A stretch of DNA of 63,529 nt, filler included, from Candidatus Zapsychrus exili (GTDB lineage: Bacteria; Omnitrophota; Gorgyraeia; Zapsychrales; Zapsychraceae): NCBI GenBank assembly GCA_030765585.1. It is 5 parts of 5 records of this genome, joined end to end, with 100 filler letters (N's around TTAATTAATTAA, not from the genome) between each part and the next. Parts side by side here need not be neighbours in the genome. Positions count along the whole stretch, not along the records: positions 1 to 12,997 come from JAVCCJ010000010.1; 4 more parts are not named here. One strand, 5' to 3'. Within the stretch, counting starts at the first letter, position 1. Each line of letters starts with the position of its first letter. Below are positions 1 to 60,332 of the stretch, piece by piece. A model generated the notes under the pieces. That model was not told the DNA's origin, ran no database searches, and was given only the letters and a program-made list of their open reading frames with translations. Position numbers and translations under genes: made by a program.

Positions 1-154
1 AAAGAATAATCTTCTTTACCGTCTATAGATTTATTATTGTAGAAATCATCTTTTAATGTTTTAATACTCCCGCAAGAGTTCTCGACACTATTAAAACATT
101 AAAAGATGATTTCTACAATAATAAATCTATAGACGGTAAAGAAGATTATTCTTT
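1..154. repeat. Perfect 66-bp inverted repeat (1-66 / 89-154, 22-nt loop) at the window edge; probable fold-back chimera
   Basis: 1-66 is the exact reverse complement of 89-154; the downstream reading frame opens at the junction (57). Confidence 0.9.
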
Positions 155-3100
155 CTTAAAAGAAGGGCTTAAGTGGGGCGAAGAAGAGTTTTTAAAAGCA
201 TTAATTATCATTCAGAGAAGTGAGTATCCTTTTGAGGAGAAAAGTAAGGCAGTATATAAAAGGAAGAATACAACCACTATTGAAGAATACAAAGGTTTGT
301 TAGTGCGCCTAGAGCAATACTACAAAGACCAAGGAAAAGACGACTTATATATAAGACAAGAGCTTAAAGTTATTATGGAAGAAGCTGTTATTTCTTCAGA
401 ATATGCTGATCAATTAAGAGGATATACAGATAAAGATTTAAGAGCAGTATTTTATTTAGCAGTAAACTTGGCAAAAGAATTCGGCCTTCTTAAAGCTAAG
501 ACAGTCTTGCTTAACACGCCTGATTTCTTAAAAGCTATTGGGGATAGCGCAAAGTTTGCAATAGACCAGAAAATAGCTGAGTTATTTAATTTAGGCTCAT
601 TAGATTTGCCAACGCTTGAAGATATTTTTGATAAATTTCCTGAAGATAGGAGCAAGAATTTTAATAGAAGTTTAAGAGGATTTGAGGAAATTAAAAGACT
701 AATAGGCGAAGGTCTTAATGCAGATACTGCAATAAGGCAAACTTTACGTATGTTTTCAAATGAATTGAATTTTAAACTTTTCAAAGGATTTGTAGAAAAG
801 ATAATAGAGATAGAAAAGAAAAACGAGCTTCTTGATAATAAGCTTAAGGTAGGTAGCTATAATCTATATATAGATGAAAATGTAAGATTTCATTTAAGCC
901 ATCAAGATAATTTTACCGACCTGATAAATGAATTATTGATAAATGCAACAAGCTATTCCCCTGAGCATAAAGCAAAAGTTTTTATAGAAAGAGTTTCTGG
1001 TTCAAAATTAAAGATAAATGTTAGAAACAAAGGTGAAATAAATTATGGGATTTTGCGAGAGAAAGTAATGCAATACGCAGAAGAAGGAAAGTTAGTTAGA
1101 TCAACCGTGGGCGTTATATTATTAGATAGTACTGAAGAAGGTATTGAAAAAGATATTGTTGCTGTGGATGAAGTAAGGGTAAAGGCGATGGAAGATCAAG
1201 ACCTTCTTTTCATTAGAGGCTTATCCTCGAGGCTAGCTCTTGAATATGGTTCAGGTGCAGGGAATGGGTTATACGCAGTAAAAGGTATTGTCAATTCATA
1301 TGCCGGGGAACTTGAAATAGAAAGTTCTAGCAATGAAACCAGTATTACTGTTTTATTGGACTATGAAAAACTACAAAAGTCTCTGTTATCAAACAAAAAA
1401 GATAAAGATGAGGCTATGGTGGTAGAGGAAGACGATTATAGTCAAGCAAAGAAAAGCTCTAGAGAACAAAGATATCATGGAAAAAATTGGAATGAGATTC
1501 GTCAACCAAGAAATTATAGTAATTTAGAGAAGGAAACAAAGGTTATTGACAAGATAAAGTGGAGTGTTGGAGAGATTGTTTATGATATAAAGCAAAGAAA
1601 CCATTTTGTTATTTAGGGATTCCCTCAAGTTAGGGGAGAAGATGGAGAACTCGAAGATTCTATTATGCTAGATTTGAATATATTGGGTCAGAAAAAAGAA
1701 CCTCGAGCACATTTTGTATCTATATCTGAAGTAAATTTACGTCTTAACAAAGTTTTTTTAAACAAGCAGAGTCTTTTAGAAGAAGCTAAAAAAGCAGCAT
1801 TAGACGTCTTAAACAGCCAGACTAATCCTATAAGCATTGGTGAATTACATAACACGCTTGTAGATGATAATCCTCCTTTTCTTTTAAGATTGGGATACTT
1901 TATAGAAAATATAAGATATGATCCAGATTTTAGTAAACATCCTAACTTAATATTTAATCCAAAAAAGATTATGAATTTAAGAAAGAAAGAAAATATTATT
2001 AATATTTTGTTGGGTATTCTGAAAGAGAATAAAGAAATAAATACACCAAAAAGACTTTATGGCGCATTTGTTGCAGAATTATTTGAGAGAAAAAACGTTA
2101 GTCGTAATGACGTTGTAAGCTTGCCTACAATGTTTAAGTATTTAAAAGATGATAGGTTCAGACCCTACAATGTTTATCAGGGTAGCAAATCAAAGAAAGC
2201 AGACGACAATGCAATGCTTTCAGAAAGGTTTAATCGCATTAAAAATGATTTAAGGGCTATCGGAACACTTGATTTTGATAATTTAGATATAGTTAGATTG
2301 GATGAAGTTTTGAAAAAAGCTCAAGCAAATCTTTTCTCTTTTACGGTACTGTGTGATGGTAATAAAGAAATGTTAGAAAGAGCGGAAAACATGCTAGACC
2401 TTGTTTCTGATGCTAAGAAGGCAATTAAAGAACAGGCGATTAGAGGTGGCGATATTATTAGAAATTTATGGATCATTGGATATGAGCCTACAACTGAAGA
2501 TTTATCAAGTTTAATTTTTGATAATGAAATTTCTTTAGCATTTAATGTAATTGATGTGCATTTAAAAAGAAAAAATATTACATATGCTGGTTTAGAGAAT
2601 ATCTTTTTAAATTTAAGTCAACTTGTGATGTCTAGCTATGATGACGAGTTAAATTATAGGCTACATTCAGAAGATGTTGTCAATGACACAATTTCTCTTA
2701 TGACTTTCTTTGAATCTATTATTGAAGACGAAGAGAATTATTTTCCTAAGGATATAGTAGAATATGTAGATTCTTTTAATGCTGTTATCCATAATTATTT
2801 TAGTGGTGATTTTGAATTGTTGAATATAAAAGAAGCGTTAAGATCTTTCAAAGAAGAAGAAATTTCTGCAGGAGTTATTAATTTTATAAAAGCAATTCAA
2901 GAACGTCTTTTTAAAGTTGGTATTAATGATGAGAACAGTAATATTGGAAAAAGAGCTTTAAATATGGCAGACGATTTAGAGGGTTTAGAAATGTACATGG
3001 ATAAAATATCAGCTAAGGATATAGTGAATGAAATTAATACTATTGGTTATGAATTATTAAAAGAAGATATATGGAAGCTAATTATGGACAGAGATGTTTT

Positions 3101-4385
3101 TAGAGCTTTTAAAGTAATAGAATTTAACTTAAAATCTGAACTTATTAATTCGGATGATTTAAAAGTTTTGTTTAAAGCGCTCAAGGAAGAAGTTTTGACT
3201 TTTATAGATGCTAAAACGACATTTAAAGAAGCATATGAAATTAGATCTAATATTGATAAATTAAAAAGTTTTTTTGGGTTTTTAGTAAATTTTAAAAGAG
3301 TACCTGGAACAAAAGATATTTTTACTGCTGATGTTACAGAAGAAGTTAGAAATATAGATGCAGAACTTATGGCGTATTCTTTTATGAGCGCAGAGGAGAT
3401 CTTTAATATAAATAGAACAAACATGGACAATTTATTTTCTGACAACGCAATGATGGCAGAAGGTACAAATAAAATGGTAGCTACATATGCAAGGATACTC
3501 TCCAATAAAACTAAGTTTAACTATACAATGTTATACGATTTCAGAAACAATAAGACTTTTAAATCAGTTGATGAAACCGATTATAGCGTGTTAGAAGAGT
3601 GGAGATTGGAGAAAACATATTTCTGGCCAAAGATGGTTAATTTTATAGAGGCCTTTCCATTTGAATTTAAAGATACAAGCGGGTTGCCCACTGATTCTCC
3701 TTATCAATATATCCTTGAGGAAGTTCTTAAAAATGCATTTGATGCTGTTGTGGCTGTTTATGATAAAAAGCTTAATGAATTTGATGTGCCAGAAGGATAC
3801 GAGGGTAAAATTTCTTTAGGTTTTGATATAGAGGACAATAATCTTGTTATTAAAGTAATGGATAATGGAATAGGCAATATGGTTTTATCCGAAGATTTTA
3901 CTAAGAGAAAGAAAGCCTTGTTTCATACTTATCTCGGAGGTGAAGGAGCTGGTTTAGATATAACAACAGAATTTGTTGACATAGGTTTAGAGTTAGGAGA
4001 TTTTGTAGAGTCTAAGCTTACTGTAGCCACAATATCTGTTCCTTTAAATAAGATAGCTATAAAAGATAATTATAATGAGCTTAGTTTACAAAAGTTATTA
4101 GATATGCCAGAAGATAATGCGATGATTTCAGATGTTGGTGGTATAGATTTAAACGCTGAAAAGTTAAACATTGAAAGCAAAGGCGAGGAAATAGATTTTG
4201 ATAGATTCTATAGTAATACAGAGTTTGATAATATAGAAATAAATGGACTTGTCCCAGTGATTTTGAATGTTACCCCAATACTTCCTACTGATGTGCCTTT
4301 GATACTTGGTATAGCAGAGGAAGAACCCGCTGAGCCCCCCTTGGTTTATTTACAAGGCCTAGACCCTTTTGATTTAATTTCTTAA
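57..4385 (+). CDS. Giant modular DxAM-linker / GGIDLN-tail protein, 5'-truncated, interrupted by one in-frame TAG (1614-1616); two HATPase_c-like modules
   Basis: ORFs 297-1616 and 1665-4385 are in the same frame, separated only by TAG plus 16 sense codons; frame open from 57; N-box/G-box motifs ELLINA..GSGAGNGL and EVLKNAFDA..DNGIG..GEGAGL; linkers DEAM, DNAM x3; C-terminal GGIDLN..GLVPVILNVTP. Confidence 0.75.
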
Positions 4386-4510
4386 AATTTATTACAATTT
4401 CTTTGTATTTTGAAGAATTAGTTGAATTAACACCGTAAGTAATTGGCAGAGTGGTAGGTTGAAATTTTAATTGTCTAATAAGGGCTTATGTATTAGAATC
4501 ATTGAATATT

Positions 4511-5991
4511 ATGAATAGAAAAATTATATATATACTTATATTTTTATTCCTATTATTGGAGCTTGGGCAAAATTCCTCTGCTGCAATATCAGGAGACAGT
4601 AACATTGATTCATCTACTATTGAAATATTAGATCTTAAGGCTATAGATGTTGCAGATGTGCTTAAGCTGATATCTCAAAAGAGCGGACTCAATATAATTG
4701 CTGGTCAAAATGTAAAGGGCAAGGTAACTGTTTATTTAAAAGATATTGATGCGCTTGATGCTTTAAAGATAATTGTTGATGCTTATGATTGGGCTTATGA
4801 GATAGAAGATAATGTTGTAAAGCTGATGACAGCTTCTGACTATGAATCCAAACGCGGATATAAATTTGGGCAAGAAACAAACACTCGCATAAAACAACTT
4901 TTGTTTGCAAAATCATCTGACCTTTTAAATGTATTAAATCAAATAAAGAGTCCAACAGGTAAGGTTGTATCCGATGAGAAGTCTAATACCCTTGTCCTTA
5001 TGGACCAAGAAAAGAAGCTTGATGAAATGGAAGCTGTAATAGAAAGAATGGATGTTCCAATTGAGACAGAAATATTTGATTTAAGCTATGCTAAAGCAGA
5101 AGACGCTGCTGGGAAAATTCAAGAGATCCTAACTCCTTCAGTAGGAACAATGAGATTTGATGCGCGCTCTAATAAGATAGTAGTATCAGATACATCAAGT
5201 AAAATTGCTGAAGTAGCAAAAATTTTAAGCGCATTTGACCAAAGAGGAAAACAGGTTTTAATAGAGGCAAAAATATTACAGATAACTTTAAGTGATAGTC
5301 ATAAGATGGGAGTTGATTGGCGAGCTATTTTAGCTGATCATGACAATCTTTATATGCGATCTGATTTTGATATATTAAGCGCAACAGACAAAGCAGGAAA
5401 GCTTAGTATTGGAACAATAGATAATCTAGACGTTTTAATAGAGGCATTAGATATTGTTGGTGATACAAATATTTTATCATCTTCAAGAATTACTACTATA
5501 AATAATGAGGAGGCGAAAATATTGGTTGGCTCAACCGAGCCTTATGTAACATCAACTACCACTACTCCTGCTTCAGGACCAACAACAGTATCAAAAAGTG
5601 TTAATTTTATAGAGGTAGGAGTTAAACTTTATGTAACTCCTACAATTCATAATGATGGCTTTATAACAATGAAAATACGTCCAGAGGTGAGTTCCGTAGT
5701 TGATAACATAACAACATCTAATAATAATACAATTCCTGTGGTAGAAACATCTGAGGCCGAGATAAATGTATTTGTCAAAAACGGTGTCACTATTGTAATT
5801 GGAGGGCTTATGAAGGATACGACTATAAAAACAACAAAGAGGGGTTCCTATTTTAGGGGAATATTCCTTTATTAGGTGTTGCTTTTAGAAATCAAAGCGA
5901 TAGTGTGACAAAAACAGAGATTGTTATATTTCTAACTCCTAAGCTTATTTCAGGTGATGTAAATACTGAAGAAGACCCTGCTTTTTATTAA
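4511..5991 (+). CDS. Secretin (PilQ/GspD family); C-terminus frameshifted in two G4 runs near 5840-5860
   Basis: Signal peptide, STN/N domains, QVLIEAKI, EVGVKLYVTPTI, TIVIGGLM; removing one G from each run restores KRVPILGNIPLLGVAFR..TEIVIFLTPKLI ending TAA 5989-5991. Confidence 0.9.
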
Positions 5992-6006
5992 ATCTGTAAA
6001 GATATA

Positions 6007-6525
6007 ATGCAAAAATTAACTCACGAAGCAATATTATTAAGACAACAAAAGAAATTGAAAGAATCTCGGCTATCACTTTGCGTTGTATTAAACAACATAA
6101 GAAGTCTTTATAACGTTGGTTCAATATTTCGTACCTCCGACGGTGCAGGTATAGAGAAGATATGGATATGTGGTATAACAGGGCATCCGCCAAACAATCA
6201 AATATCAAAGACAGCATTGGGCGCAGAAGATCAAGTCCAATGGGAGTATAGAGAAGATGCAGCTGCCGTTATTGAAGAATTAAAACAACAAGGCTATGAA
6301 ATAGTATCTTTAGAACAAACAAAGACGAGTGTGCTTTATCAAGATTTTAAGCCAAGCAATAAAGTTTGTTTAGTTTTGGGAAATGAAATAGAAGGGATAG
6401 AAGACAAGGTGGCAAGTTTAAGCGATGAATCAATCGAGATTGAGATGTCTGGAATCAAAAACTCTTTGAATGTTTCAGTTGCTTTTGGAATTGTGGCATA
6501 TTATATTAAGAATTGTATGAAGTAG
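6007..6525 (+). CDS. TrmH/SpoU-family RNA methyltransferase
   Basis: NIRSLYNVGSIFRT, VLGNEIEG, SLNVSVAFG SPOUT motifs. Confidence 0.9.
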   Translation: MQKLTHEAILLRQQKKLKESRLSLCVVLNNIRSLYNVGSIFRTSDGAGIEKIWICGITGHPPNNQISKTALGAEDQVQWEYREDAAAVIEELKQQGYEIVSLEQTKTSVLYQDFKPSNKVCLVLGNEIEGIEDKVASLSDESIEIEMSGIKNSLNVSVAFGIVAYYIKNCMK

Positions 6526-6575
6526 GTAGTAGCTTGTAGGATTAATTGTGGGAAAATAAGAAAGGATACGATATT

Positions 6576-6839
6576 ATGATAATTAAAAAAGTAGGAATTT
6601 TTTCTTTAGGAAAAGTATTAGGTATTATAAATGCTGGAATAGGTGTTATTGTTGGAGTATTTGTTCTAATTGCATCTCTTCTTGGTGCAATAGAGGAGGG
6701 TCCTTCTGTAGGTGCTCTTGCAATGTTCTTATTGCCAGTTATGTATGGACTTGCTGGATTTTTAGGAGGAGTATTAAGCGCTTGGTTATTTAATTTAGGT
6801 GCAGGTTTAGTAGGCGGATTAGAGATAGAAACAGAATAA
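6576..6839 (+). CDS. Small two-TM membrane protein (DUF3566-like)
   Basis: IKKVGIFSLGK start, two Gly-rich hydrophobic helices, FN..A..GGLEIE end; AAGGA RBS. Confidence 0.6.
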   Translation: MIIKKVGIFSLGKVLGIINAGIGVIVGVFVLIASLLGAIEEGPSVGALAMFLLPVMYGLAGFLGGVLSAWLFNLGAGLVGGLEIETE

Positions 6840-6888
6840 TAATTATTTCGGAGTTAGGAAATAGATAGTATAAAAATATTTGTTAATT

Positions 6889-6920
6889 ACCCCAGGGGTT
6901 ATATGTCCCTGGGGTTTTTT
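6889..6920 (+). terminator. Rho-independent terminator
   Basis: ACCCCAGGG/CCCTGGGGT stem followed by a T run. Confidence 0.8.
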
Positions 6921-6997
6921 ATTGGATTTTCACGAATAAGGAACATATTAAAACTTAGTTGTAAAGTGCTGCGTATTTGATTAGAATATTCAAGTAT

Positions 6998-7930
6998 ATG
7001 ATTCTTGCAGACAATATCACAAAATATTTTGGAGCTTTTAAAGCAGTTGACTCGGTTTCTTTTGAAATTGGACGCGGAGAGATTGTAGGCTTTTTAGGTC
7101 GCAATGGAGCTGGAAAGACTACGCTTATGCGTATGTTAACAGGATATTTACCTACAAGCGAAGGAAAGGTAATAATTGATGGAAAGGATATGTCTAAAAA
7201 CCCTCTTTCCATTAAAAGAAATATAGGATACTTGCCAGAAAACCCACCTCTTTACTCTAATATGACAGTTAAGGATTATTTGAAATTCGCTGCTAGATTA
7301 AAAGATATTACCCCAAAACAGATATTGGCCTGTGTTGACAGGGTTATTGAAGAATGCAGATTAGAAGATTCTCGCGGTAAAATAATTTCAACATTGTCTA
7401 AAGGTTATAAGCAAAGAGTAGGGATAGCGCAGGCAATTATAAATGAGCCAGAAATAATTATTTTAGATGAGCCTACAAGCGGACTTGACCCAGTGCAGAT
7501 TTCGCACATAAGAGATCTTATCGGAACTCTTGAACATAAGAGGACAGTTATAGTAAGCACTCATATACTTTCTGAGATAGAACAAATTGCTAAAAGAGTA
7601 ATGATAATAAAAGATGGGCGTATAGTAAAAGATGATTCTTTGGAAAACATACTTTGCTCAGACAATAGAAAAGATATTTTTATAAAAGTAGCTGGTAAAG
7701 AAGAGCTGATAGAGAAGGCAATAAGACAGGCTGACGGATTTAAACAAATTAATATAGATATAGTCCAAGACGATGTTTATCTGGTTCAGGCAGAGAATAA
7801 AAATAATATATTGAACTATAATGATTTATTGCAGAAGCTTGTTGATAATGGCGCAAAGGTTCTTGAAATAAAACAAAAAAAAGGAAGCCTAGAAGAAGAG
7901 TTTTTAAGAATTAATAGGTTAAAATTATGA
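6998..7930 (+). CDS. ABC transporter ATP-binding protein (GldA-like)
   Basis: Walker A GRNGAGKTT, LSKGYKQR signature, Walker B IIILDEP, STH. Confidence 0.92.
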   Translation: MILADNITKYFGAFKAVDSVSFEIGRGEIVGFLGRNGAGKTTLMRMLTGYLPTSEGKVIIDGKDMSKNPLSIKRNIGYLPENPPLYSNMTVKDYLKFAARLKDITPKQILACVDRVIEECRLEDSRGKIISTLSKGYKQRVGIAQAIINEPEIIILDEPTSGLDPVQISHIRDLIGTLEHKRTVIVSTHILSEIEQIAKRVMIIKDGRIVKDDSLENILCSDNRKDIFIKVAGKEELIEKAIRQADGFKQINIDIVQDDVYLVQAENKNNILNYNDLLQKLVDNGAKVLEIKQKKGSLEEEFLRINRLKL

Positions 7931-8631
7931 GAAAGATTTTAGATATAGCTAAGAAAGAATTGTCTTCGTATTTTCGAACGCCAATAGCGTATATAGTGCT
8001 TATTGTCGCTGCGATAGTATTTAATATGTTCTTTTTTATTATAGTAGATAACAGTCAAGAGGCTTCATTAAGAGATGTATTTAAGGTAATGGAATTTTTG
8101 TTTGTGTTTATTGTGCCGATCTTGACTATGAAGGTTTTTGCAGAAGAAAAAGCAACAGGTACTATGGAATTCTTGATGACAACACCGACTACTAATAATC
8201 AAATTGTACTTGGCAAATATCTAGGAAGTCTGGCTTTCTTTGGTTTGATGGTAGCTCCAACAGGCGTTTATTATCTTATATTAGAAATTTTTAGTTCGCC
8301 TGACCGCGCAACAATTTTAACTGGATATTTAGGAATATTGATTGAAGGAGCATTTTTTATATCAGTTGGTATTATGTGTTCTTCTTGGAGCAAGAATCAG
8401 ATAGTATCAGCAATACTTTCTTATTCAATTTTATTTATGTTGTATTTTTCTTTAAGTTTTATTAAGTATTTTAGCGGAATAGCAGAGCAAATAATTAGGT
8501 ATACAAACATCATGAGCCATTCGGAAAATTTCCTTGTTGGTCTTATTACTGTGTCTGATTTGATTTATTTTATTAGTGGCATTTTGTTTTGTTTAGTCAT
8601 AACAAGAGTCAGCATTGATAAAAGAATATAA
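7927..8631 (+). CDS. ABC-2 permease (GldF-like)
   Basis: KKELSSYF.TPIAY, AEEK.TGTMEFLMT, IVLGKYL; 6 TM; ATGA overlap. Confidence 0.9.
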   Translation: MRKILDIAKKELSSYFRTPIAYIVLIVAAIVFNMFFFIIVDNSQEASLRDVFKVMEFLFVFIVPILTMKVFAEEKATGTMEFLMTTPTTNNQIVLGKYLGSLAFFGLMVAPTGVYYLILEIFSSPDRATILTGYLGILIEGAFFISVGIMCSSWSKNQIVSAILSYSILFMLYFSLSFIKYFSGIAEQIIRYTNIMSHSENFLVGLITVSDLIYFISGILFCLVITRVSIDKRI

Positions 8632-8635
8632 AAAA

Positions 8636-8680
8636 CAGGGTTTAGGGGCTAGGGATTAGGGTCTAGTCTAGGGTTTAGGA
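8636..8680. repeat. Degenerate heptamer run (AGGGTTT/AGGGGCT/AGGGATT/AGGGTCT)
   Basis: Direct reading of the intergenic sequence. Confidence 0.6.
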
Positions 8681-8683
8681 AAT

Positions 8684-10279
8684 ATGGGTAATGTAAATAA
8701 AAAATCTAAAGTTTTACTTATGCTTAGCATAACTTGCATTATATTTGCAGTTGGAGTCTGGTATATAGAAAAAAGTTTAGCTATTTATGCCATCTGTCTT
8801 CTTGTTGTGGGAGTGGTTTCTTTGTTTCAGTCAATAATACAGCTTATAAAGTTAGCTCCTAAAATTGGTCAAGGAGCTTTAAGAAAATGTATTTTTATTG
8901 GGATTTTAATAATGCTTTGGTTTGCTTGGCTCCTTAGCATTAATTATTTGGGTTATAAATACAATTTACGTTTTGATTTGACAAAATTAAAACAACATAC
9001 TGTAACAGATTCTACAAAAGATTTATTGTATGGACTAACAAGTGAAATACAATTAACTTCTTTTTATGTTGGAGTACCTCCTAAATACTTAGAGGATTTG
9101 CTTAAAGAATATTCACGGCTATCAAATGGTAAGATAACGGCAGAGATAATTGACCCCATTGTTGATATTGGTTATGCAGCGCGTTTTGGAAATATAATAG
9201 ACGGTAAACAGCAGAAATTAATTGTGCAATCTGGCAGTCAAAGACAAGATATTGATTTTACCGAGAGTGCACTTAATGAAGAGCTCATAAATAACGCTAT
9301 TATTCGCACCTTAAGAGATAAGCGCCGAGTTTATTTTTTAACAGGGCATGGCGAATATAATATTTTTGAAGAAAAAGAAAAGGGTTTAAGTTTATTTGCA
9401 AAAATATTAGAGGTAAATAATATTATTCCAAAACGAATTATGCTTGGTGTCTCTGATGGAATGCCAGACGATTGCGATGTTCTTGTTATTGCCGGCCCAA
9501 AAGATTTCTTAACAAAAAGAGAAGAAAAGATAATAAGTGAATATTTAGACAAGGGAGGAGATGCCCTTTTCTTAATAGAGAATACGGTTGTTACAACTCC
9601 TGATAAGCCTTTGACAGAAGAGGAAAAAGAAAAGAATCCTTCTTTAAATGAAATTTTAAAGAATTGGGGCATTGAGGTACAACAAGACATTGTTGTTGAT
9701 TCGTCTTCTCACGCAAGTGGTGATGTTGGAAGTCCTGCCACAAGAAATTATATGGCGCATCGCGCTATAGTAGGCTCACTCGATTATACATTTTATGTAA
9801 GACCGCGTTCAATAAAAATGGTTCGTAATAGACGCAAGACAATCAAAATAGCTCCGCTTGTTTTAACTGCATCAAATGAACATAGCTGGGGAGAGACAAA
9901 TAGATATTTAGAAGTAGAGTATGACGAGGGAGAGGACAGGGCAGGTCCTGTTCCAATTGCTTTTGTTGCTTGGGAGCCTGTAATAGATACTAAGACAGGT
10001 AAGAAAATAAGAGCAGATAAGACATCTGACACAAGGTTAGCGGTTTTTACTGATGCCGATTTTATAACTAATATTTTTATAAAACAATATAGTAATGCTG
10101 AGATGGGATTAAATATTGTTAATTGGTTATCTGAGTTGGACTATAAAACTTTTGTTGATAAGAAATCTAAAGAGATAGAAGTAGAGAGGCTAGATTTAAC
10201 TAGTAGGCAAAAACGTATTGTTGTTTTTATTCTTTTTCTTATTCCTGTTGTTATTTTGATATTAGGATTACGAAGGTAA
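8684..10279 (+). CDS. GldG-family ABC auxiliary component
   Basis: RFDLTK, VYFLTGHGE, CDVLVIAGP, YLDKGG, NIVNWL, C-terminal TM. Confidence 0.88.
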   Translation: MGNVNKKSKVLLMLSITCIIFAVGVWYIEKSLAIYAICLLVVGVVSLFQSIIQLIKLAPKIGQGALRKCIFIGILIMLWFAWLLSINYLGYKYNLRFDLTKLKQHTVTDSTKDLLYGLTSEIQLTSFYVGVPPKYLEDLLKEYSRLSNGKITAEIIDPIVDIGYAARFGNIIDGKQQKLIVQSGSQRQDIDFTESALNEELINNAIIRTLRDKRRVYFLTGHGEYNIFEEKEKGLSLFAKILEVNNIIPKRIMLGVSDGMPDDCDVLVIAGPKDFLTKREEKIISEYLDKGGDALFLIENTVVTTPDKPLTEEEKEKNPSLNEILKNWGIEVQQDIVVDSSSHASGDVGSPATRNYMAHRAIVGSLDYTFYVRPRSIKMVRNRRKTIKIAPLVLTASNEHSWGETNRYLEVEYDEGEDRAGPVPIAFVAWEPVIDTKTGKKIRADKTSDTRLAVFTDADFITNIFIKQYSNAEMGLNIVNWLSELDYKTFVDKKSKEIEVERLDLTSRQKRIVVFILFLIPVVILILGLRR

Positions 10280-10303
10280 GTAGTTTTTTAAAATTCATCA
10301 CAT

Positions 10304-10354
10304 AGTATAAAATAATAGGGACAGGCGTTAAGCCTGTCCCTATTATTTTATACT
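10304..10354. terminator. 23-bp perfect hairpin between convergent genes; probable bidirectional terminator
   Basis: AGTATAAAATAATAGGGACAGGC-gttaa-GCCTGTCCCTATTATTTTATACT. Confidence 0.8.
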
Positions 10355-10367
10355 CTAAATATTTAAA

Positions 10368-11816: not shown

Positions 11817-11834
11817 TTTTTTTCCTAAAATTAA

Positions 11835-12699: not shown

Positions 12700-12805
12700 T
12701 CTAAATACTCCTTATAATAAAGGATAACATATTAATATTAATAATACAAAAAGCTAGAAAATGCTTTTTAAATCTATTCTTTATTAAGAGTTGTTTTTAA
12801 TAAAG

Positions 12806-12997
12806 TTACCAGGTTATACAAGAAGCAGTGCAAATAGCTCTGGATTTACCGCTACTATCTGCGTTTGCTCTTAGAAGCCAAGTCCCAGAATTAGCGTTTC
12901 TCCAAAGAACGCATTCTGCCCACTTTTTCACCCCAAGGCCTCTTTTGTAATCGTGTGTTAACGCGCAAAATCCATTGCTACTAGATATGCCTGTATC
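12806..12997 (-). CDS. 3' end of a gene cut by the contig break; Cys-patterned domain resembling PilV-type pilus-tip adhesin C-termini
   Basis: Open frame not in the ORF track: DTGISSSNGFCALTHDYKRGLGVKKWAECVLWRNANSGTWLLRANADSSGKSRAICTASCITW*. Confidence 0.5.
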   Translation of the reverse strand, partial: DTGISSSNGFCALTHDYKRGLGVKKWAECVLWRNANSGTWLLRANADSSGKSRAICTASCITW

Positions 12998-45666: not shown

Positions 45667-46070
<404 letters not shown>

Positions 46071-46252
46071 ACTTGGCTTATTTTAACTCTTAAAATTATA
46101 AACGTGGCTTGTTTCTTTTTTCTAAAAAACTTTAAAAAATTTCAAAAAAAGAATCTTAAGATCATCTCCAGGTTGAAAAATGACCTTAATAAAAAACAAT
46201 AAGATTTCAAAGATCGTTACAAATTTACAACATTCCCCTCATGGGGACTTGA

Positions 46253-49102: not shown

Positions 49103-49108
49103 ATAGCT

Positions 49109-51919: not shown

Positions 51920-54900
51920 CTAACGCGACAATCCCTGTTTTTTATGAGATTGCTTCGTAGCTACGCTTCTTGCAATGACAACACGCGCTAAACGCGCGCC
52001 TTGTGGCTTGTTATAGTGTTCGACTTGACCGATCAAATCTTGACTCTCACTGTCCTCTTCTTCATTTAATCCAAGCAAATTATATATATTTGTAACAGGA
52101 GTAATATTTATAATAATAGGCATGACACCTTCAATATTATCCAAATCTATGCCACGAAGAGACTCTGGAAGATTAAAATCAACCCCTTGTCCTTTTATTT
52201 CTATGTTCATCTTATCCGCATTAAAATCAATTCCACCCTTATTTGCTGTCATCGCCTGATCTTTTTGCTTTTTAACTTTACTAACAAATTTTTCTTTATC
52301 TAAGCCTTTAAAGTCAAGATTCATATTATAATGTTCTCTGCGAGAACTATAGCTACCATAAAACCCTTTCTCTTCTTCCCACTTTTCTTTAATTTGCTTT
52401 TGTGTCTCACCTTTATCTTTAAGGTTAGTCTGCTTCTTAATAGATGCCCATGATTTGTAGGCTATATAAGAAGTTATTAATCCAGCCGTTTGGAAAATTA
52501 AGAATTTTCCTACAAAAGACCAATCCAAAGTATGTGATCCTGTGTCGCTAACAATATCATCAACAATCGCTGCTGGAGCCAAATAAAATGCAGCACCTAC
52601 AAAAAACCAAAAAGGCTTTAAAAGCAACCAATTAACAATTTTCTCTTTTAATGTTTCCGCCTTTATTTCAGAAGGCTTTTCTTTTCTCACAAAAATAGGA
52701 TCAATATTTTCTGCAGGATCATAGAGAGAAACAATCATAGTCCCTACAATAGGACTTTTATCAAATTGTATCTCAGCAATTCTAGATTGCTTTCTTACAA
52801 TCTTTTCTTGTTGTTTTAATATGTTAGCACCATTCTCAGGAGATGCTACATTATGAGGTCTGACAAAAAGATATTCAAAAATATTCTGAATAATATTATT
52901 TTTCTTTCTCTTTAAAGTTGCTCCTTGAGCATGCAATAGAGTTGTATTATTTTCTGCGGATGTTACTGCCATAAAAGGACTACTTGAAGCAATATTTGCC
53001 AATGCATTATGCTGATTTGACATGCTGTCTCCTCCGCTTCGATAACGCACTTTATTAAAAATAGGATCAACTGCTCTACCCATAGTGCTTCGATTAATTG
53101 TAATATCTGCAAATAGTTTTCTATTGCCGATGTCACACTCTAAGTTATGAATTAAAGCACCAAACTCTCCATATTGAAACAAATTATTAGCAGACTCTAG
53201 ACCAATAAATGTATCTAACTGGGCTTCTAAAACATTGTATACTCTTTTTTCTCTACAAATCTTCTCAATATATTGATATAAACTTTTATTATCTTTTACT
53301 TCTCTATCAGCATGAAAATAGAAATCAGCTTCTGGATTACGTTCAGCTAACTCAATGAGAACTTCAACAAATTTTTTCTCACGGCCCTCTTTGGACACTA
53401 AGCTCACAAGCTCTTGAACAAGTTCTGCTGAGCGCTCATCTTTTGGTTTTACATTTAAAATATTATTGGTTTGCTCAATAATATTAGCATCTCTTAAGTC
53501 TTGCACAATCTTCTTCCTTTCATCATTGCTGCTTTTTATCATTTTCCAAGCTAAGCTTAAAGCTTGAGTTGCGCTAGAAGGAAGCTTATTTATTGGACTA
53601 TATTTAAATGGCTCATGCAATGCTTCAGAATATCCCTTAAAATCATATTTTTCTTTTTCTGTTATCATCGCCTCGTCTGCTTTTGATAATTCCAACTTAT
53701 CATCTAACTTATTTCCAAAAATAATATCAAATGATGATACATCTGAAGAAATATCATCATAGTAATTACCAAAAACAAGTCCCTCATTAAACAGTTTGGA
53801 AAAATGCTCCAATCTAGGGAGATTAAAATTATGCTGATTAAAAGCAACTATAATCTTCTGAGCAATTCTTTGAATGCGAGTTCTTATGGGTCTCGGAATA
53901 TGCTCTGGATGATATGAAAAAGAAAGGTGTTCAGCATCTATAAAAAACAAAAGAAGCGATGATAAATCCATAGTATCTTTATGTGATTCGTTAGCTCTAA
54001 TATCAACAAAATTGAATTCTTTATTCTTAAAATCAACTAATAAGTTTGAAGTGCTAGCATGATCAATGCTATGTCCAGCATCATTAATAACAAAATAAAG
54101 CTTAACAAACTTATTGTAGGAAGACTGTGGCATATTAGAAACCATATCTAAATAATTCAAATAATACTCTTCCATAGACTCTTTATCATAATTAAGTTTT
54201 ATTGCAACTTCATTAGAAACTCCTGCGGCAACTCCTCTTTGGTTTAATAAAATTTCAACTCCTCCAATACGCGCTATAACTTGCCCAACATTATATCCAG
54301 GCAAAATATCGTCGACCATCTCTAACGAACTTCCCTTTAAATAATATTTAGCAGGAACTTTAATAACAAACTCTCTAATATTCGGTATAGCAAAAACTGT
54401 CCCCTCTCCGCCAGAACCTATAAAATTAATCGAACCATCGGCTATAGCTTCTTGAATCATACTAAGAATATCCTTATAACCTGCATCTTTTATTTTTCTT
54501 AAAAAATCTTCTTTAGATATATAAGGCCCTACAATACTTTCGTCTTTATTGTCCGACACCATTGCATTATCTCCGCTAATTTTTTTAACCATTAAAAGCA
54601 TATTTATTACATTCTGCGATATAGTCCCATTTCTTTTCTCCTTCAAAAATTTCTCAGAAAAATCATTGTCCTTCAAGAGTTTTGATAAATTAGTTGCAAC
54701 AACTCCATCTCTATACTTAAATTTAAACTTATCCTCGTCAACAATTCCTTCTTCAGAAACTTTCTTGATGCTCTTAACAATACTTCCACTATAACTATCC
54801 TTCATGCCAACCACTTCAGAAGCATCAGGAAACAAAATTGTCATTCTTTGCAAAACATTAATTTTATTTTTTTCCCTTTTAAAAGCAGTCTCGCAAGAAT

Positions 54901-57900
54901 CTAAAATAATCTTACCGTTTCTCTTTAAGGCCTTCGAAACTCCTCTTTGATTTAAATATTTAAAAGTTTCATTCTTTATTGATTTAAACATTGAATCTAA
55001 GTCAATGGTTTTCCCATCCTTACCATGACCTGCAAAAACAATAACATCTGCAAGCCTAGGCTCGTCATCTTCTGAATCAAAAAATGTTGCTTCACGTAAT
55101 GCTTCAACAATTTTCTCCTTACTTTCAACTTCGTAATACAACACATTAAATCCACCTTCAATAAAAGTTTTTAAACTACTACTATCAAGAAAAGCTGCGT
55201 TGTGATCTGCAGTAGCGTTAATAACAACAACTTTCGGACGTATATCAATCTTTTTATTTCTAATATTATTTCTGTTGCGAATAATCTCATCCCCTACAGA
55301 AGTCTCATTACCAAAAATATTGATTCTTTCTTTTGACCATACTAAACTCCTAACAAGCCCCAACTCATGATGTTGATAAATATAATTTAATAATTCTTTC
55401 ACTTCATCTGACTTCGCTAATTCATCCTCATAGATCAAACTTTTCCTATAAGCAGCTCTTAAAACAGCTTGAACAATCCTGAGCCTTTCTTGTGATATTA
55501 AAAAACTGTTACTCCCTCTGGCTTTAAGCTTAGAAAACGCCCCTACATCTTCTAATACATAAGGTAAGATATTTTTTGCTATCTTTATATAATTATCTAT
55601 GTTCTCATCAAAATCTTCTACATTATAACCTTTCATATTATAAAACCTATGCGCTATTGAGCGCATAACGGCTCTTACCACAAATTCTTCACTGCTATTT
55701 TCTAATTCTCTACCTTCCATCTCAACAAAAGATTTAACAATACTTTCTTTTAGCTGTTTTACTTTTTCTTTGTGTCTAAATATTATTCTAGAATACTGGG
55801 GGAGAATATCCTCTTCAGAATTTTCAACAAACTTTTCAAATAAATGATAGATATTTCTTCCTAATTTATGATTTTCGTATGACTCCTTTTTCTTAAACAA
55901 AGTCCTGCCTATCATCTTTCTCACAGTTAGCTTGTCGTCAAACGCCTCTGATAAAAAACCTACAGCCCTATAAGTATAACTATTTTTATAATCTATTTCT
56001 TGATCAGCTTTATCACTATCAATAAATAATTTCTTTTCTAACTTAGCTAATAACTTTTTCTTAAAAATAGAAGATTCCCCTTTAATGCTCTTGTATACTT
56101 CTTCTATATCATCATTTTCTCTAATATTAAACGCTCTAATTCTTTTTGAATCGTCTAAAGAAATTTTCTGTTGCATATTACTTTCTGCTGTCTTTTTAAA
56201 AGTCTTAACTAAGTAATCTACAAAACTTTTACGCTGAACTTCATACTTGTTCCACCTAGAATCTTTATTTCCTAAAAGAAAAACAATGGCGCCTTGAATC
56301 TCTTCCTTAGTGCCCATAATAAGTATCTCATTCTTTAAATATATAGTTTTTCCTCTATATTGCTCCATATATATCATCGCGCCTAATATCCTTGCTATTA
56401 AAACTCTTAACATTAACTTCATGCGAAAATCCAAGCTCATCTAAAATAGAACGAATTTCACCAATATCAACAAAATTAGTTCCAGCTAACGTGTGACTTT
56501 CAAACTTATCAAAACCCTCTTCTTTTCCTAATGTTGCTACAAGCCTTCCATCTTTATCATATCCAACTTTAAAAGTTGTTTCATTAATTTCCGTCGTCAT
56601 CGCCTGATCTTTATCAAAAGATTGAGAATTGCTTAACTGCTTTGCAATTGCTTTTATTATGTAATCACTACTATGAGGTGTTTTATTTTTAAAATTAAAC
56701 AATATTGCTCTCTTAAACGGATTTCTTATTCTTCTATCAGCTATTGCTTCTTTGAATTGTTTAAGCAAAACATCATTGTAGTCTTTTTTATCTCCAAAAT
56801 ACTCCTTAAAATAACCTTCTATTTTCTTTCCTTGACGAGAGAATTTTGGAAGCCTACTATACGCATCAACAAGATATTCAAAAACATATCTGTCATTGCT
56901 CTCTATATTTTTAAACGACTTTGCAGTACGATAAGCATAGTGCCAAGCTTCATCTTCATGATTTACGCCCTCTACTAAAGGAAACTGTATAATATTTATG
57001 CCCAAGTCTTTCTTCTTAGCTGCATCAATATTTTTTATATAATCATCTATAAAATATATCTGATCTCTTTTTAATCCTTTATTTTTCTTTAACAATCTTT
57101 CTACTTCTTCTTCTAAGACATTAGCCTTTATTGTTCCATCTCCGGATGTAAAACGTATTCTTGTAACAGTTTTGCCTTCAACAATACCTACAGATGCAAG
57201 CACTTTACGCGTCAACCTACCTTTTCCATCGCTTTTAGGTCTTGCTGTAAAAACTACAACATTTACACCAAAATTCTTTAATGTATCTAAAATATCTGCA
57301 TTGAGATGGGTTGGCATTTTAAAGAAATTATGCTTTGCCATCCTTTCCTCGTCTTTATCTCCCTGAGCATAGACAACCTTTTGAGCTTTACCAATAGCCC
57401 ATCCAAGCATGGCTTGACCCCCTTTTGTATTTACATCAAAAATTTCTCCATTATTTATTTTTTCAACAATATAATTGTGAGCAAATATATTAATACTGCG
57501 AACTTTTTGAGTCTCAGAACCAACAAATCCCATAGGCATTACCATGGTATTGTCTAAATCAACAAAAAGAGTTTTAACGTTTCCTTTTTTTGCCTCCTCA
57601 ACTAAATCTACAGATATATCGCGCCAAGAATCATACTTCAAATCCCTACTTTTTCTTACATCTTTATTCTCAGAAACCATTGCTTTATCTTTTTCCTTAC
57701 CATCTATCTCGAGCGCTTCTTTAATAATTTTTAAAGTTTGTTCGCTATTAGAAACATTTGTGTGAGGATCTTCTAAGCCTTTTATAATAAAAGATTCTTT
57801 AACAGAATTTAATGTATTATTGTATCTATCTACATATCCCTCAAAGAAACTCTTTTGATATTTAAGGCCACTGTTTTTAGGTGGGGCATGAGAATCTCCA

Positions 57901-60122
57901 TCTGCAACTATACTTATACTATTAGGAATCTCCCTAGAAAAAGATGCTACGCTCTTTTCACTAAACAACTCCAACATCTTATAGCTATGAGGACTTAGTG
58001 ATTCGTAGGCATCACGAGCATCTTTATTAATTATTCCATAAATAAAACTAGGCTCTGGCATTGTCGTCCATGCAGCTACATTAGAGCCAGATATAGGAGC
58101 AGCAATTTCTATATATGCTTTTACATCAGAAGAAAGCTCTTTATGATATCCTTTATTTACAAAATTCCTGTAAACGATTGTCCCTAAAGAATAACCAATA
58201 ACGCTATATTCTTTAGGTGAATATTCATTATGAAACTTATACATCTGTTCTTTTAATATTCTAGAAATATCATCTATCGGAAGATAATTGTCATAAATAA
58301 AAGCTGCCACATTAAAATCACCTTTAATCTCATCTATAATATTTGAAAAAGTACTGTTAGCTCCTCTTCCTGCGCCATGAAGTAAAAATACTGTTGATTT
58401 AGAGTTATCGAATTCTCCTAAAATATAAATATTGTTAAGAGAAGAAAATACCTTTAATACTTCTTCTTTTCTTGGGTCACCATCTCTTGCGCTTCTTAAC
58501 ATCTGACCAAGTTTTGATAGCGGAACTACATCAGGAACCGCTGCATCTCCCCAAACAAGATCTCCGTTAATACCACTATATATAAGCTCTAATGCATGTT
58601 TAAAAATTTTAGTATTATGCTCCCATATTCTATTTTTTATATTTGAATCTTGTTCTCTATAAATATTATCCTCTAGGAGCTCTCGGAAACCATGCATAAC
58701 ACCTTTAACGTTTTCTACCGAAACAGGGCCTTTAAGATTTTCTATAGGAAAACGCTCATCCTCTACTTTTTCTTTTTCTGCATTCTCAGGAAATACGCCA
58801 AGACCTTCACCTTCTACATATTTACTATAATCATACTCATAAAAACCTTCGCGAAATTCCTCAAGTATTTGCTCTTGAGACATGCTTATATCAGGCATCA
58901 AAATCTCATGATCTAACTCTATATTCTCTCCGATAACACCATCTGGTGATAGTAAAGCAACTCCTGTTGTAATTACAAATAGTCCTACAGCAATGGCCTT
59001 TGCAAGCTTTCTCCCCACGCTACGATTTGTTGTTGTTATCATAGCTTCATCCATTTTCCATGAAAGACCGCCAGAGAAATATTTCTTTGGAATTATTTGT
59101 TTTGTTGCAGGGTCATATTCTTCCTTTATATAATTACAAACACCCTTCTTAAAAGCCTCTACATATTGACTATATATTTTCTTTGACACATCTTTGTCTT
59201 CTATGTCTATACCTTTTATTTTGGACTTGTCTGAATATACTTTATTTAAAATAGCATCCTTTAAATTACCTTTAAACCAATGAGCCAAGATAATAGAATT
59301 ATATATTTGTCTTAATTCTGCGAAATTCTTTCCTTCGTTTACTTCTTTTTCTATAGCTGGAATAATTATCTCTTTAATTATTTCAGTCTGCAGTTGACGG
59401 TTTGCAGTTGGCAAAACATTGCTTGCTTTTTGCTTACTGCCTACTGCCAATTGCCCACTATTCAAATATTCTTCTTCAAGCATAACCTTCAATTTAGACT
59501 CAACTACAAACGCCCTATCTCCCTGCTCGTACACAACAGCCTTTTCTGGTACTATCCATACCTTATTAAAAGTATCCGTAGAAATATCTATCTTTCCATA
59601 TTTTTGATATGCTTTTTTGTACAACTTGTCCCAAAATTTTCTTCCTATTTCGCCTTCTGGATGCATAAGAGACGCTGTTATTTGCTTTAACAGGTAATCT
59701 TGCGCAAGCATATCGCGACCCATATCTGTTTGACCTAAAGCATTTGGGATAATCCTATCTTTTTCATAAGGAGACAAATTGACCCACAAATTATCTTCTG
59801 GGATAGTTAAAGCTGATAAGAAATATTTTATAAGTTTCTGACTTTCTTCCTCTAATGTGTCCTCTTGCGCCTTTGAGTCTCCAGAATCAACTATAAAATC
59901 AAATTGTAAGGGGTTATCAAGGTAGATTTTAATACCGCGCAATATGGCGGGAGCAAAACCAGAACTTAAGTTTACTATAGCTCCAGGCTGCGGGAGACCC
60001 AATAACCCCTGTGCAAAACTTGGCGTCGGGAATATACAGGTAGAAAGAAAAGAAATAACTACAAAATATATAATTATCTTTAAAGAAAAATTAATATTTT
60101 TATTATTGGCATTGATAAACAT
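51920..60122 (-). CDS. Giant (~2730 aa) secreted modular DxAM-linker / GGIDFN-tail protein; one frameshift near 56360
   Basis: ORFs 56355-60158 and 51920-56440 join by removing one A (DDIYGA|YRGKTIYL); signal peptide ending SFA-Q; six DxAM linkers; hydrolase (GYSLG), HAD (DLDNT..FIDD), His-Cys (FAGHG..LDSC), kinase-like (GSGGEG..VIK) modules. Confidence 0.8.
51924..51979. repeat. GTCATTGC..GCAATC-type palindromic repeat read in frame at the giant gene's 3' end
   Basis: GAGATTGCTTCGTAGCTACGCTTCTTGCAATGAC, translated on the minus strand as VIARSVATKQS. Confidence 0.7.
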
Positions 60123-60332
60123 GCTTCTCAGATACCCCCCAATTGATAAACTTAACAACGCATAATACTGATATCAAAATCTAATATAAGTATAAAATAC
60201 TTTCTTAATAAATAGGGGCATCTAGGGAGCTTTGAAGAAAGCGGTTTCTTTTACATCTACACAGAGAAGCCTTAACTATAATTTTGAATATTTTTATTAA
60301 TATAAATACTATTGGTGTGGACACGAAGTGTC

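Follow-up and report, generated by a model that had tools for sequence, protein, structure and literature searches.

A truncated member of a head-linker-tail protein family in Candidatus Zapsychrus exili and the linkers between its cargo modules

The window, the whole stretch of 63,529 nucleotides from Candidatus Zapsychrus exili that was analysed, is composed of five separate contigs with N runs between them. The assembly of this genome is 96% complete. Omnitrophota, the phylum of this organism, are ultra-small, host-dependent bacteria, and multi-domain exported proteins are a signature of them. The gene at 57..4385 (plus strand) belongs to a large head-linker-tail family of Omnitrophota proteins, and only its 3' portion is present. 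The architecture in this family is a signal-like peptide, a head of ~310 residues, modules with five-residue linkers between them and a tail. The first contig opens inside the cargo, and the signal peptide and head of the gene are not on that contig. Bases 1..154 (no strand assigned), at the very start of the contig, form a fold-back that is 92% self-reverse-complementary (blastn self-match, 1–154 against 154–1); a hairpin scan found ends of this type in 3 of 258 cases. About the first 60 bases, the mirror of 88–154, are probably an artefact of assembly. As the fold-back sits at the extreme contig start, the 5' end of the gene is absent, and a search for a contig overlap prolonging it found none.

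Four linkers divide the gene, all on the plus strand: DEAM(V) at 1407..1418, DNAM(L) at 2205..2216, DNAM(M) at 3441..3452 and DNAM(I) at 4113..4124. They lie exactly where the original prediction had placed them, in one frame with the GGID sequence at 4137–4148, and the segments bounded by them comprise 266, 412 and 224 codons, as claimed. An in-frame TAG (1614–1616, plus strand), either genuine or an assembly error, splits the gene within the 266-codon segment. No public contig bridges this codon and one stops at 1613. Six family genes are interrupted in this genome, gene 57..4385 among them. Recoding of TAG was considered and rejected, since the interruptions are TAG, TAA and TGA or frameshifts. 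A siting of frameshifts in linkers was rejected as well; the five interruptions inspected all lie outside linkers.

The gene starts with the remainder of a helical cargo module (63..695, plus strand), which is common to the family member P0045, an SSP-linker user (phmmer E 4e-19, residues 3–213 against 729–938 of P0045). In P0045 an H...HD pattern lies just ahead of the matching region, and Pfam HD gives only a weak match to P0045 (E 0.13). Judged from this pattern the module is possibly HD-like, its putative metal-binding residues having been lost at the contig end. Segment 2 (1419..2204, plus strand) has no Pfam match. Among Atlas clusters with a family, HARE-HTH comes nearest to it (score 0.83; 31% of the members carry the family), so that winged-helix content is possible, as a lead only. 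Segment 3 (2217..3440, plus strand, 408 residues) has no family match. A weak word-based search found no homologues of segment 1 among longer proteins or of segments 4 and 3 among proteins of similar length, and the Atlas look-alikes are hypothetical proteins only.

Two HATPase_c-like domains are present, the first with the CheA-like insertion that had been described for it. Domain 1 (906..1364, plus strand; PF02518, E 3.7e-5) carries a CheA-P4-like insertion and lid, and domain 2 (~3705–3986; Pfam HATPase_c, E 3.1e-4) forms the core of segment 4 (3453..4112, plus strand) and is of the histidine-kinase type; both matches fall below the curated cut-off. Each of the best eight PDB sequence matches of domain 1 (E 3e-5 to 2e-3) is a CheA sequence and extends over the insertion and the lid, both of which are found in the CheA P4 domain (PDB entries 4xiv and 1i58). 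By the usual definitions of the ATP-binding boxes, domain 1 has the N and G2 boxes and a degenerate G1 box (NKGEI), and in domain 2 the N, G1 and G2 boxes are intact. Domain 2 matches YycG weakly (E 0.025). Segment 4 has no phospho-accepting His helix, and its sole His is in the lid region. Unlike CheA, gene 57..4385 has no Pfam match to Hpt or CheW (nor to HisKA), its G1 box in domain 1 is degenerate, and no CheW was found in the 96% complete assembly. The two domains would be captured kinase ATP-binding domains that have no His-acceptor partner, and not a working two-component kinase.

The last linker starts 8 codons before the GGID tail (4137..4385, plus strand). In the alignment this tail consists of a core of ~60 residues followed by an acidic end and the stop. 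The tail profile matches 4131–4334 with E 6e-26, and its closest relative, at 73% identity, is the tail of a paralog in this genome, the member on contig C87. The head of that paralog is 72% identical to the one of a head-only member at the end of contig C25, which makes the C25 piece the best candidate for the missing 5' half of gene 57..4385.

A secretin gene (4502..5991; Pfam Secretin, E 1.8e-29) lies on the same strand and starts 117 nt past the stop of gene 57..4385, which agrees with the reported arrangement. An apparent frameshift near 5841–5856 is probably an assembly error, as a public contig covering 5064–6382 has one base fewer at 5841 and one fewer at 5856. The implied link to the secretin did not survive the synteny check: a family tail abuts the secretin at none of the 39 orthologous loci with visible upstream DNA, and at 38 of them a GspC-like gene occupies that position. 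At 3 of the 39 loci a family gene stands directly before ATPase-gspC-secretin, and a fourth locus has one at a distance of about 8 kb. The closest relatives of tail 4137..4385 are not among the tails of the three directly placed genes. PilO and the orthologous GspC-like gene were not found in the assembly with the queries used. The adjacency is probably incidental and would reflect the insertion site. Taken alone, gene 57..4385 adds little, being truncated and interrupted and having a neighbour that is not conserved.

A second member occupies 51920..60158 on the minus strand, with a head, six DxAM linkers (59040, 57678, 56598, 54560, 53666 and 52250) and a GGID tail at 52226. Its conserved head (59061..60011, minus strand; supported by alignment and hydropathy) follows a hydrophobic N-terminal stretch ending in AQ and is predicted by AlphaFold with a pLDDT of 78 and a pTM of 0.81. 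The gene is split by a frameshift within 56355–56440. A public contig covering 56220–57147 spans the frameshift without differences and may derive from the same sample. When gene 57..4385 was read through with X and compared with both ORFs of the second member (BLASTP), one significant match was obtained, consisting of the last linker and the tail (E 1e-13); the next-best match has E 0.18. The claim that only linkers and tail are shared therefore holds for this pair, which aligns only at the last linker and tail, but not for complete members, which also share the ~310-residue head. This head is present in 51920–60158 and absent from the truncated copy.

The view of a polymorphic family rather than a one-off fusion was borne out: the genome holds 17 head matches, one of them incomplete where a contig ends, as well as 16 tails, and cargo is almost never common to paralogs. 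Six pieces on other contigs of this genome are head-only. Tails were found in 28 of 30 relatives. Of 150 further genomes drawn from across the phylum, 16 have the head: these comprise all 6 that belong to the same order and 10 that belong to the same class. The head profile finds 8,205 clusters at 50% identity, and a family of this size would be a major uncharacterised part of Omnitrophota genomes. No Pfam or NCBIfam model exists for the head, and no invariant Cys or His is found in it. Family members have about 600–5,000 residues (at most 2,991 in the ORFs of this genome; 4,199 in the longest among the representatives listed) and occur as many dispersed paralogs per genome. Their cargo includes HTH domains, kinase ATPases, methyltransferases and glycolytic enzymes; a Pfam scan of family ORFs revealed neither protease nor RTX or toxin domains. 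The neighbours of other members checked in this genome, all ORFs of 200 or more codons, belong in 18 of 19 cases to known unrelated families, mostly housekeeping, with no secretin among them and no adjacent immunity gene seen among ORFs of that size. A description of the family or its linker was not found in the literature searched, which covered few subscription journals, and the family is apparently previously undescribed. Foldseek returned nothing for the head at E 0.001, and the best match ranked by Z score was not clear (Z 3.7, rmsd 6.5, 111 aligned). For a natural 579-residue member the matches listed covered its own cargo only (the best PilO-like, Z 8.1, rmsd 2.5, 81 aligned) and barely probed head and tail. 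This outcome does not show a new fold.

The linkers mark genuine module borders. D.AM occurs 86 times in 34,540 family residues versus 31 times in 411,316 other residues, and the following residue is V, I, L, M or T in 86 of 86 family cases versus 13 of 31 elsewhere. None of 24 Pfam stretches is cut by DxAM (8.2 expected, P 4e-6), and PGK, enolase, PGI and PFK each fill one segment. Furthermore, ends of cargo-cargo alignments lie within 10 residues of DxAM for 35% of 26 sides, reciprocal duplicates included, versus 4.7% with random placement.

As the linker of the family, DxAM is typical of this genome, where it is found within 40 residues of 14 of the 16 tails (by eye; the motif tally before tails under-counts this genome, identical representatives being counted under P ids). 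It is not universal: DxAM is missing from 33 of 104 complete representatives, and many members use SSP[VI] in its place. Among 24 relatives sampled, 11 use DxAM, 4 SSP[VIM] and one each DxA[AS], TNAAV and SS[AS]; 6 are ambiguous. The general linker pattern is [DST]-x-[AS]-[MASP]-aliphatic. DxAM and SSP are mutually exclusive among 150 representatives (12 with both, 70 with DxAM only, 42 with SSP only and 26 with neither; P 2e-9). In the quick tree of heads, a clade with a support of 99 unites three DxAM members of this genome with two SSP members of other genomes. The linker wording tracks the genome more than the head lineage. Heads do cluster partly by genome (33 changes versus 50.6 when shuffled, quick tree), and part of the dialect can therefore be plain descent. 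The linker is also found in a head-less giant ORF of this genome (9,937 residues), which has 6 D.AM versus 0.65 expected (P 6e-5; one of seven long ORFs).

Several features of the family point to a location outside the cytoplasm. At the threshold applied, 15 of the 16 ORFs with a head have a hydrophobic N-terminal stretch; at most two stretches per family ORF exceed the threshold, and none does in gene 57..4385. Cysteine is depleted 11-fold in family cargo (30 in 27,264 residues versus 325 expected), and gene 57..4385 has 1 Cys in 1,299 residues where about 15 are expected. Head and tail seem to be coupled. Across 160 pairs of head and tail sequences, the three strongest couplings between the domains reach z 9.4, 6.6 and 6.0, against control maxima of 5.6 in all 18 random re-pairings and 4.3 in a nearest-head swap; in an earlier run one of two shuffles reached z 8.2 versus 11.2 and 8.6 for the true pairs. 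A complex prediction of head and tail scored 0.24 versus a mark of 0.32 and counts neither for nor against docking. In the predicted model of the 579-residue member (pTM 0.68) the tail core has a pLDDT of 76–92 and the cargo is mostly below 60. For ATP- and NAD-dependent cargo, the supply of cofactors in the periplasm is not obvious.

The reading that we favour, at somewhat less than an even chance, is that these are exported polyproteins with a head-tail clasp, whose linkers serve as processing sites with one reader for the whole genome. Export would probably proceed through Sec. Co-variation and modelling suggest that the head probably docks onto the tail, so that the cargo string would loop out. 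At somewhat less than even odds, each genome would have one protease that acts in trans, recognises the linker and releases the modules beyond the cytoplasm, either in the periplasm or where the host is contacted; at the same odds, recombination copying linker DNA would bring in new modules. A trypsin-like gene beside one member was considered as the linker reader and rejected, as its distribution is not that of the family. Of 31 genomes, 18 have close matches; several genomes rich in family members show none with that query, and one genome without a tail match has them.

The linker also carries a signal in its DNA. Silent sites in this genome strongly favour G in the Ala codon (z 8.2) and in the codon after Met (z 10.9); pooled over 10 genomes, GCG and NTG codons are in excess at linkers (z 13.6 and 11.4). 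Protein-level selection alone does not explain this bias. The pattern GAYNANGCRATGNTR is found 52 times in family ORFs versus 3 times in the rest of the genome, and in 3 of 7 genomes linkers within a gene are more alike than linkers between genes (p 0.0005, 0.0005 and 0.026). All this favours a linker that is chiefly a DNA-level joint, an insertion scar or micro-homology between paralogs, which encodes a tolerated tether while the exported, clasped protein stays whole as a surface or periplasmic scaffold. That no reader protease was found, with one candidate examined, fits this as well. However, the within-gene excess is absent in 4 of 7 genomes, and the Ala-codon bias, with z >3 in 6 of 10 genomes, is absent in the other 4. 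In SSP and DxAS linkers, Ser is encoded by TCN as well as by AGY codons, an indication of selection on the residue. Moreover, the flanking bases have no shared consensus, so that the common stretch is only about 15 nt, and the inspected interruptions avoid the linkers. We regard such a joint as somewhat unlikely to be the chief role of the linker.

A broader form of the processing idea is a general Omnitrophota linker code with one short signal per genome between all modules of the exported polyproteins, parts of giant proteins included. As DNA, the signal would guide the in-frame insertion of captured genes with copying of the joint, and as peptide it would be the cut site of one co-evolving protease that frees modules from the clasp at host contact. 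This generalization is unlikely as it stands. If true, this would be a way of capturing cassettes and processing polyproteins that has no described counterpart in bacteria.

A third explanation is effector delivery of the MARTX type. Export would proceed through the neighbouring secretin system, head and tail would together serve for translocation or attachment, and the modules would do their work in a host or prey cell. The layout, with constant ends and variable modules in the middle, recalls that of MARTX proteins (PMC6315884), the cargo holds domains that are normally cytoplasmic, and at three of the 39 orthologous loci a family gene directly precedes ATPase-gspC-secretin. Omnitrophota giant genes often adjoin type II/IV secretion genes, according to the accessible parts of West-Roberts et al. 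(10.1101/2023.11.21.568195) and Nielsen and Lui (10.64898/2026.06.07.730766). Against this, the direct abutment recurs at none of the 39 loci, partners of the secretion system were not found with the queries used, the nearest tail is that of a same-genome paralog and not of a syntenic locus, and no protease, RTX or toxin domain was seen in the ORFs scanned. The loss of cysteine suits an oxidising compartment better than a host cytoplasm. Delivery of this kind is decidedly unlikely.

The loci could also be a decaying reservoir of captured gene fragments, gene 57..4385 being a pseudogene that has no current function. The in-frame TAG, the six interrupted family genes, the frameshift of the second member that recurs in a public contig (which may share the sample), the degenerate G1 box and the CheW not found in the assembly are in line with decay. 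Conversely, the assembly has base errors of its own, as the secretin frameshift is absent from the public contig, and the frame, the single TAG excepted, remains open over 1,442 codons of DNA with 34% GC. Most relatives fetched are single intact ORFs, a choice biased towards top tail matches. Near-total removal of cysteine together with perfectly kept linkers indicates selection on the protein. Decay is very unlikely. The suggestion that the linker Met is an internal translation start, giving modules as separate cytoplasmic proteins from one mRNA, can be set aside as extremely improbable: Met begins each segment in the DxAM dialect, frequently with GTG, ATG or TTG as the codon after it, but Shine-Dalgarno-like words precede 6 of 86 linker Met versus 44 of 572 other Met, the SSPV, DxAA, TNAAV and SSAI dialects have no Met, and the loss of cysteine and the ending of modules are left unexplained.

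Among known systems, the HYP effectors of cyst nematodes offer an analogy for the DNA-level reading only. According to the accessible text of 10.1101/2023.10.16.561705, the number and order of motifs in their central domain vary by species-specific rules; as described there, they are eukaryotic and allelic and vary short motifs, not whole captured domains, and no homology to the present family is expected. Programmed editing is disputed in the title of PMC13577501. Polymorphic toxin systems, in the portion of Zhang et al. 2012 (PMC3482391) that was available, likewise combine a constant trafficking part with variable cargo in multiple copies. In contrast to these, the head-linker-tail proteins vary in an internal stretch of several modules and end in the constant tail.

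The family may work like MARTX, by analogy of layout. As far as the available text of PMC6315884 describes them, MARTX proteins have conserved N- and C-terminal arms around strain-variable modules, and the modules are released by inter-module cleavage. They differ in their type I secretion and toxin cargo from the present family, which has a Sec-type signal, metabolic and regulatory cargo and many paralogs per genome. Furthermore, head, tail and cargo have no Pfam match to the repeat arms or the cysteine protease domain of MARTX.

The closest comparison is with the giant proteins of the same phylum, the 'multi-enzyme metabolic cluster' proteins and the Archaeovorins (Nielsen and Lui; West-Roberts et al.; both as accessible in part). 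These share with the family strings of unrelated, normally cytoplasmic domains and a signal peptide or membrane association, and HATPase_c is among the commonest domains (136 proteins) in the catalogue of 916 proteins. The tiling by unrelated metabolic and regulatory domains is seen in the head-linker-tail family too, and the giant ORF of this genome bears the DxAM linker. The family is unlike the giant proteins, which have 10,000 residues or more, in its smaller size, its many dispersed paralogs and its fixed head and tail. Unlike Archaeovorins, it has few or no membrane helices, and SecA-like and C39/S8 peptidase domains were not found by Pfam in the family ORFs scanned. In the accessible text of both studies cleavage of giant proteins into pieces is proposed and cut sites are not given; in their main texts the word 'linker' does not appear and 'motif' appears only in one reference title. 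West-Roberts et al. state, in the part available, that missing cleavage-point information prevented the splitting of giant proteins into units. A linker that is genome-specific, never cuts a known domain and recurs in a giant protein provides candidate boundaries, which can be used for folding modules singly. If the linker code holds, it would supply the cut sites that the work on giant proteins lacked.

Reading frame 3 is open from position 57 to 4385 of the window (+ strand) save for a TAG at 1614–1616. The four DxAM motifs and the GGID motif of this gene are found at the positions claimed in the original prediction. Comparison with the two ORFs of the second family gene (51920–60158, − strand) returned the last linker and the tail as the only significant match. 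The observation is confirmed and its interpretation is partly supported: a family is present, whereas the neighborhood of the secretin gene is not conserved.

The window is composed of five contigs separated by runs of N. The two genes lie on contigs C67 (window 1–12997) and C73 (window 45667–63529) of a genome of 2.04 Mb with 34% GC and 96% completeness. Bases 1–154, at the start of C67, fold back on themselves, and similarity to P0045, a family member with SSP linkers, begins at base 63. Thus, the contig starts within the cargo and lacks the first part (5′ end) of the window gene. A candidate for its 5′ half is a head-only member running off the end of contig C25 (L003:9769–12966). This head is 72% identical to that of the member on contig C87, which also has the nearest relative of the window gene's tail. 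Altogether six family genes of this genome are interrupted. A public contig, perhaps from the source sample, spans the frameshift in 51920–60158 without change.

Segment 1 of the cargo contains what is left of a helical module that is also found in P0045 (E 4e-19) and is possibly HD-like as judged from a Pfam match (E 0.13). It is joined without an intervening DxAM to HATPase 1, whose eight best PDB matches are all CheA and whose G1 box is degenerate. CheW was not found in the 96% complete assembly. Segments 2 and 3 could not be assigned to a family. Segment 4 consists of a kinase-type HATPase; its boxes are intact and the His-acceptor helix is absent. BLASTP gives no alignment between the two HATPases, and HATPase modules are present in two other family members. 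HATPases are among the commonest domains of Omnitrophota long proteins. Those of the window gene are best read as captured domains that are independent of each other.

Synteny with the secretin gene directly downstream was inspected in relatives. Outside the window genome 54 secretin loci were collected; 46 are 49% or more identical to the secretin of the window, 41 remain after removal of five duplicates and 39 include upstream DNA. The usual gene order is pilO, ATPase, gspC-like, secretin, and the gene upstream of secretin is GspC-like in 38 of the 39 loci (NCBIfam E 0.007). A family tail abuts secretin in none. In three loci (L045, L053 and L055) the gene immediately preceding the ATPase is a family gene, and a further locus has one ~8 kb upstream. 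The tails at the three loci are not the closest to that of the window gene, the nearest being the C87 paralog. With the queries used, the window assembly contains no PilO and, as GspC-like gene, a paralog only. Among 19 scanned neighbors of other family members there is no secretin; 18 belong to unrelated known families, mostly housekeeping genes. Most likely, therefore, the two genes are adjacent because a family gene was inserted here, perhaps at a site used more than once, and they do not form a conserved module.

The secretin gene itself has a frameshift at window 5841–5856, caused by two bases that are surplus in comparison with a public contig, which lacks the frameshift. This is probably an assembly error, and other frameshifts of the assembly are to be treated with caution. 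A paralogous ATPase-gspC-secretin cluster occurs at the starts of contigs C44 and C56 (L097 and L098). Each contig has one half of an ExeA-like ATPase gene; the two halves overlap, and the contigs probably join. Elsewhere, a trypsin-like peptidase of 250 residues whose N-terminus is signal-like (L002:10290–11039; Pfam matches to the trypsin family only) is encoded divergently from an adjacent family gene. Its close matches, present in 18 of 31 genomes, do not track the family.

Genome-wide counting, proposed in the original prediction, yields 17 head copies (query: N-terminal 360 residues of the 51920–60158 member) and 16 tails (tail profile). Head and tail lie on the same contig in eleven genes; six pieces are head-only and five, including the window gene, tail-only. 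The heads have a mean column identity of 58% and end in YFSGG; neither Pfam nor NCBIfam holds a model for them. The head profile matches 8,205 clusters (50% identity), and the tail ends 104 of the best 150 representatives. Of 150 other genomes sampled across the phylum 16 have the head: all six of the same order and ten others of the same class. Of 30 relatives, 28 have tails, and the number of matches per relative ranges from 1 to 72. In more distant families the tail is reduced to GGIDL and one short strand or continues into a different domain. Two distant members (L187:1326–6683 and L188:1136–4036) stop a few residues past GGIDL, which leaves one short strand as the minimal tail; in one of these two proteins SSPA and DRVGG recur five to six times.

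In the head at window 59061–60011 and its paralogs, two loops (columns ~200–235 and 305–335 of head alignment A2) carry variable insertions, similarly worded in several paralogs. The members L008:2984–11956 and L009:3439–9519 have heads 84% identical and differ in their glycolytic enzymes (GAPDH, PGK, enolase and aldolase; UGPase, PFK, PGI and PGM); this pair is a recent duplication with wholly replaced cargo. A stand-alone GAPDH (L003:6833–7837) adjoins another member. One cargo segment of L004:3079–8631, a protein with a signal-like N-terminus, has several tandem helix-turn-helix matches.

The family proteins consist of a head, modules split by linkers and a tail, and the linker marks the module borders. 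Family ORFs carry D.AM at 33 times the density seen elsewhere, and the next residue in them is always V, L, I, M or T. Where Pfam assigns a domain, D.AM never cuts it (0 of 24 stretches, 8.2 expected), and in paralogs whole enzymes fill single segments. Cargo-cargo alignments (26 sides, not independent) end near a linker in 35% of cases (4.7% by chance) and span one in 7.7% (42% by chance). The effect on alignment starts is weaker (7.7% versus 2.3%).

Linker wording also varies between genomes as a dialect. Among 24 sampled relatives, represented by 1 to 7 ORFs from the top tail matches, the dialects are DxAM (11), SSP[VIM] (4), DxA[AS], TNAAV and SS[AS] plus aliphatic (one each), with no clear motif in six. 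All clear dialects fit [DST]-x-[AS]-[MASP]-aliphatic, and DxAM and SSP avoid each other within single proteins. In a quick tree of 69 heads, the 16 heads of the window genome take three label changes, of which starred branches force two; a clade with support 99 unites three of them with SSP members from two other genomes. The heads overall still group by genome, so part of the dialect pattern is descent.

Two signals coexist in the linker. In the SSP and DxAS dialects serine is encoded by TCN as well as AGY codons, an indication that the residue is under selection. Side by side with this, silent third positions are biased in the window genome (z 8.2 and 10.9, residue and next base controlled). 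The silent bias of the Ala codon exceeds z 3 in six of ten genomes and not in the remaining four, and linkers are more alike within than between genes in three of seven.

D.AM also occurs six times (0.65 expected) in a 9,937-residue ORF on contig C24, which matches neither head nor tail; five of the six are grouped at residues 5721–6263. The other six long ORFs have none. This ORF is the first of four very long same-strand ORFs in a row (C24:37451–109729; 9,937, 3,548, 2,776 and 7,894 codons), which are probably pieces of a single giant gene that is interrupted.

The head is predicted to dock with the tail. In a mean-field coupling analysis of 160 distinct head-tail pairs, inter-domain pairs rank 2, 6, 13 and 24 of all, where one of two shuffles reached z 8.2. 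Repetition without near-invariant columns gives head-tail z values of 9.4, 6.6 and 6.0, all above the controls (maximum 5.6 over 18 random re-pairings, 4.3 for a nearest-head tail swap). The AlphaFold model of a natural 579-residue member (58-row alignment) has pLDDT values of 76–92 in the tail core and 93 in the post-head strand, and a pTM of 0.68 though the cargo is poorly modelled; its bearing on docking is indirect. In a 426-residue relative with little cargo (L181:2641–3918), the head ends in FSGGVDL and a strand resembling the GGIDL strand of the tail. Head end and tail start may be two copies of a single motif, a hint at strand exchange.

A hydrophobic N-terminal stretch is present, at the threshold used, in 15 of 16 head-bearing ORFs. 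Family cargo contains 30 cysteines in 27,264 residues (325 expected), and the window gene has one in 1,299 residues. Cysteine loss is a mark of proteins leaving the cytoplasm. Judged from these sequence features, the family proteins appear to be exported.

Tentatively, we regard the proteins as exported, clasped polyproteins. The linkers would be putative processing sites for one reader per genome, and new modules would come in by recombination that copies the linker. Of this chain, the sequences show architecture, module borders and dialect, whereas export and clasp are predicted. The main rival, a linker that is a joint at the DNA level only within an uncut scaffold, is somewhat less likely.

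The weight of the finding lies in the family and its linker code, not in the damaged window copy. A description of head, tail or linker was not found in the literature searched; preprint supplements may list members. The Lipocone paper refers briefly to giant proteins of this type. Phylum and cargo style are common to the family, Archaeovorins and multi-enzyme long proteins, but the family does not match these in size or membrane content. Among known systems, the family works most like MARTX toxins as regards layout, but it lacks their defining features.
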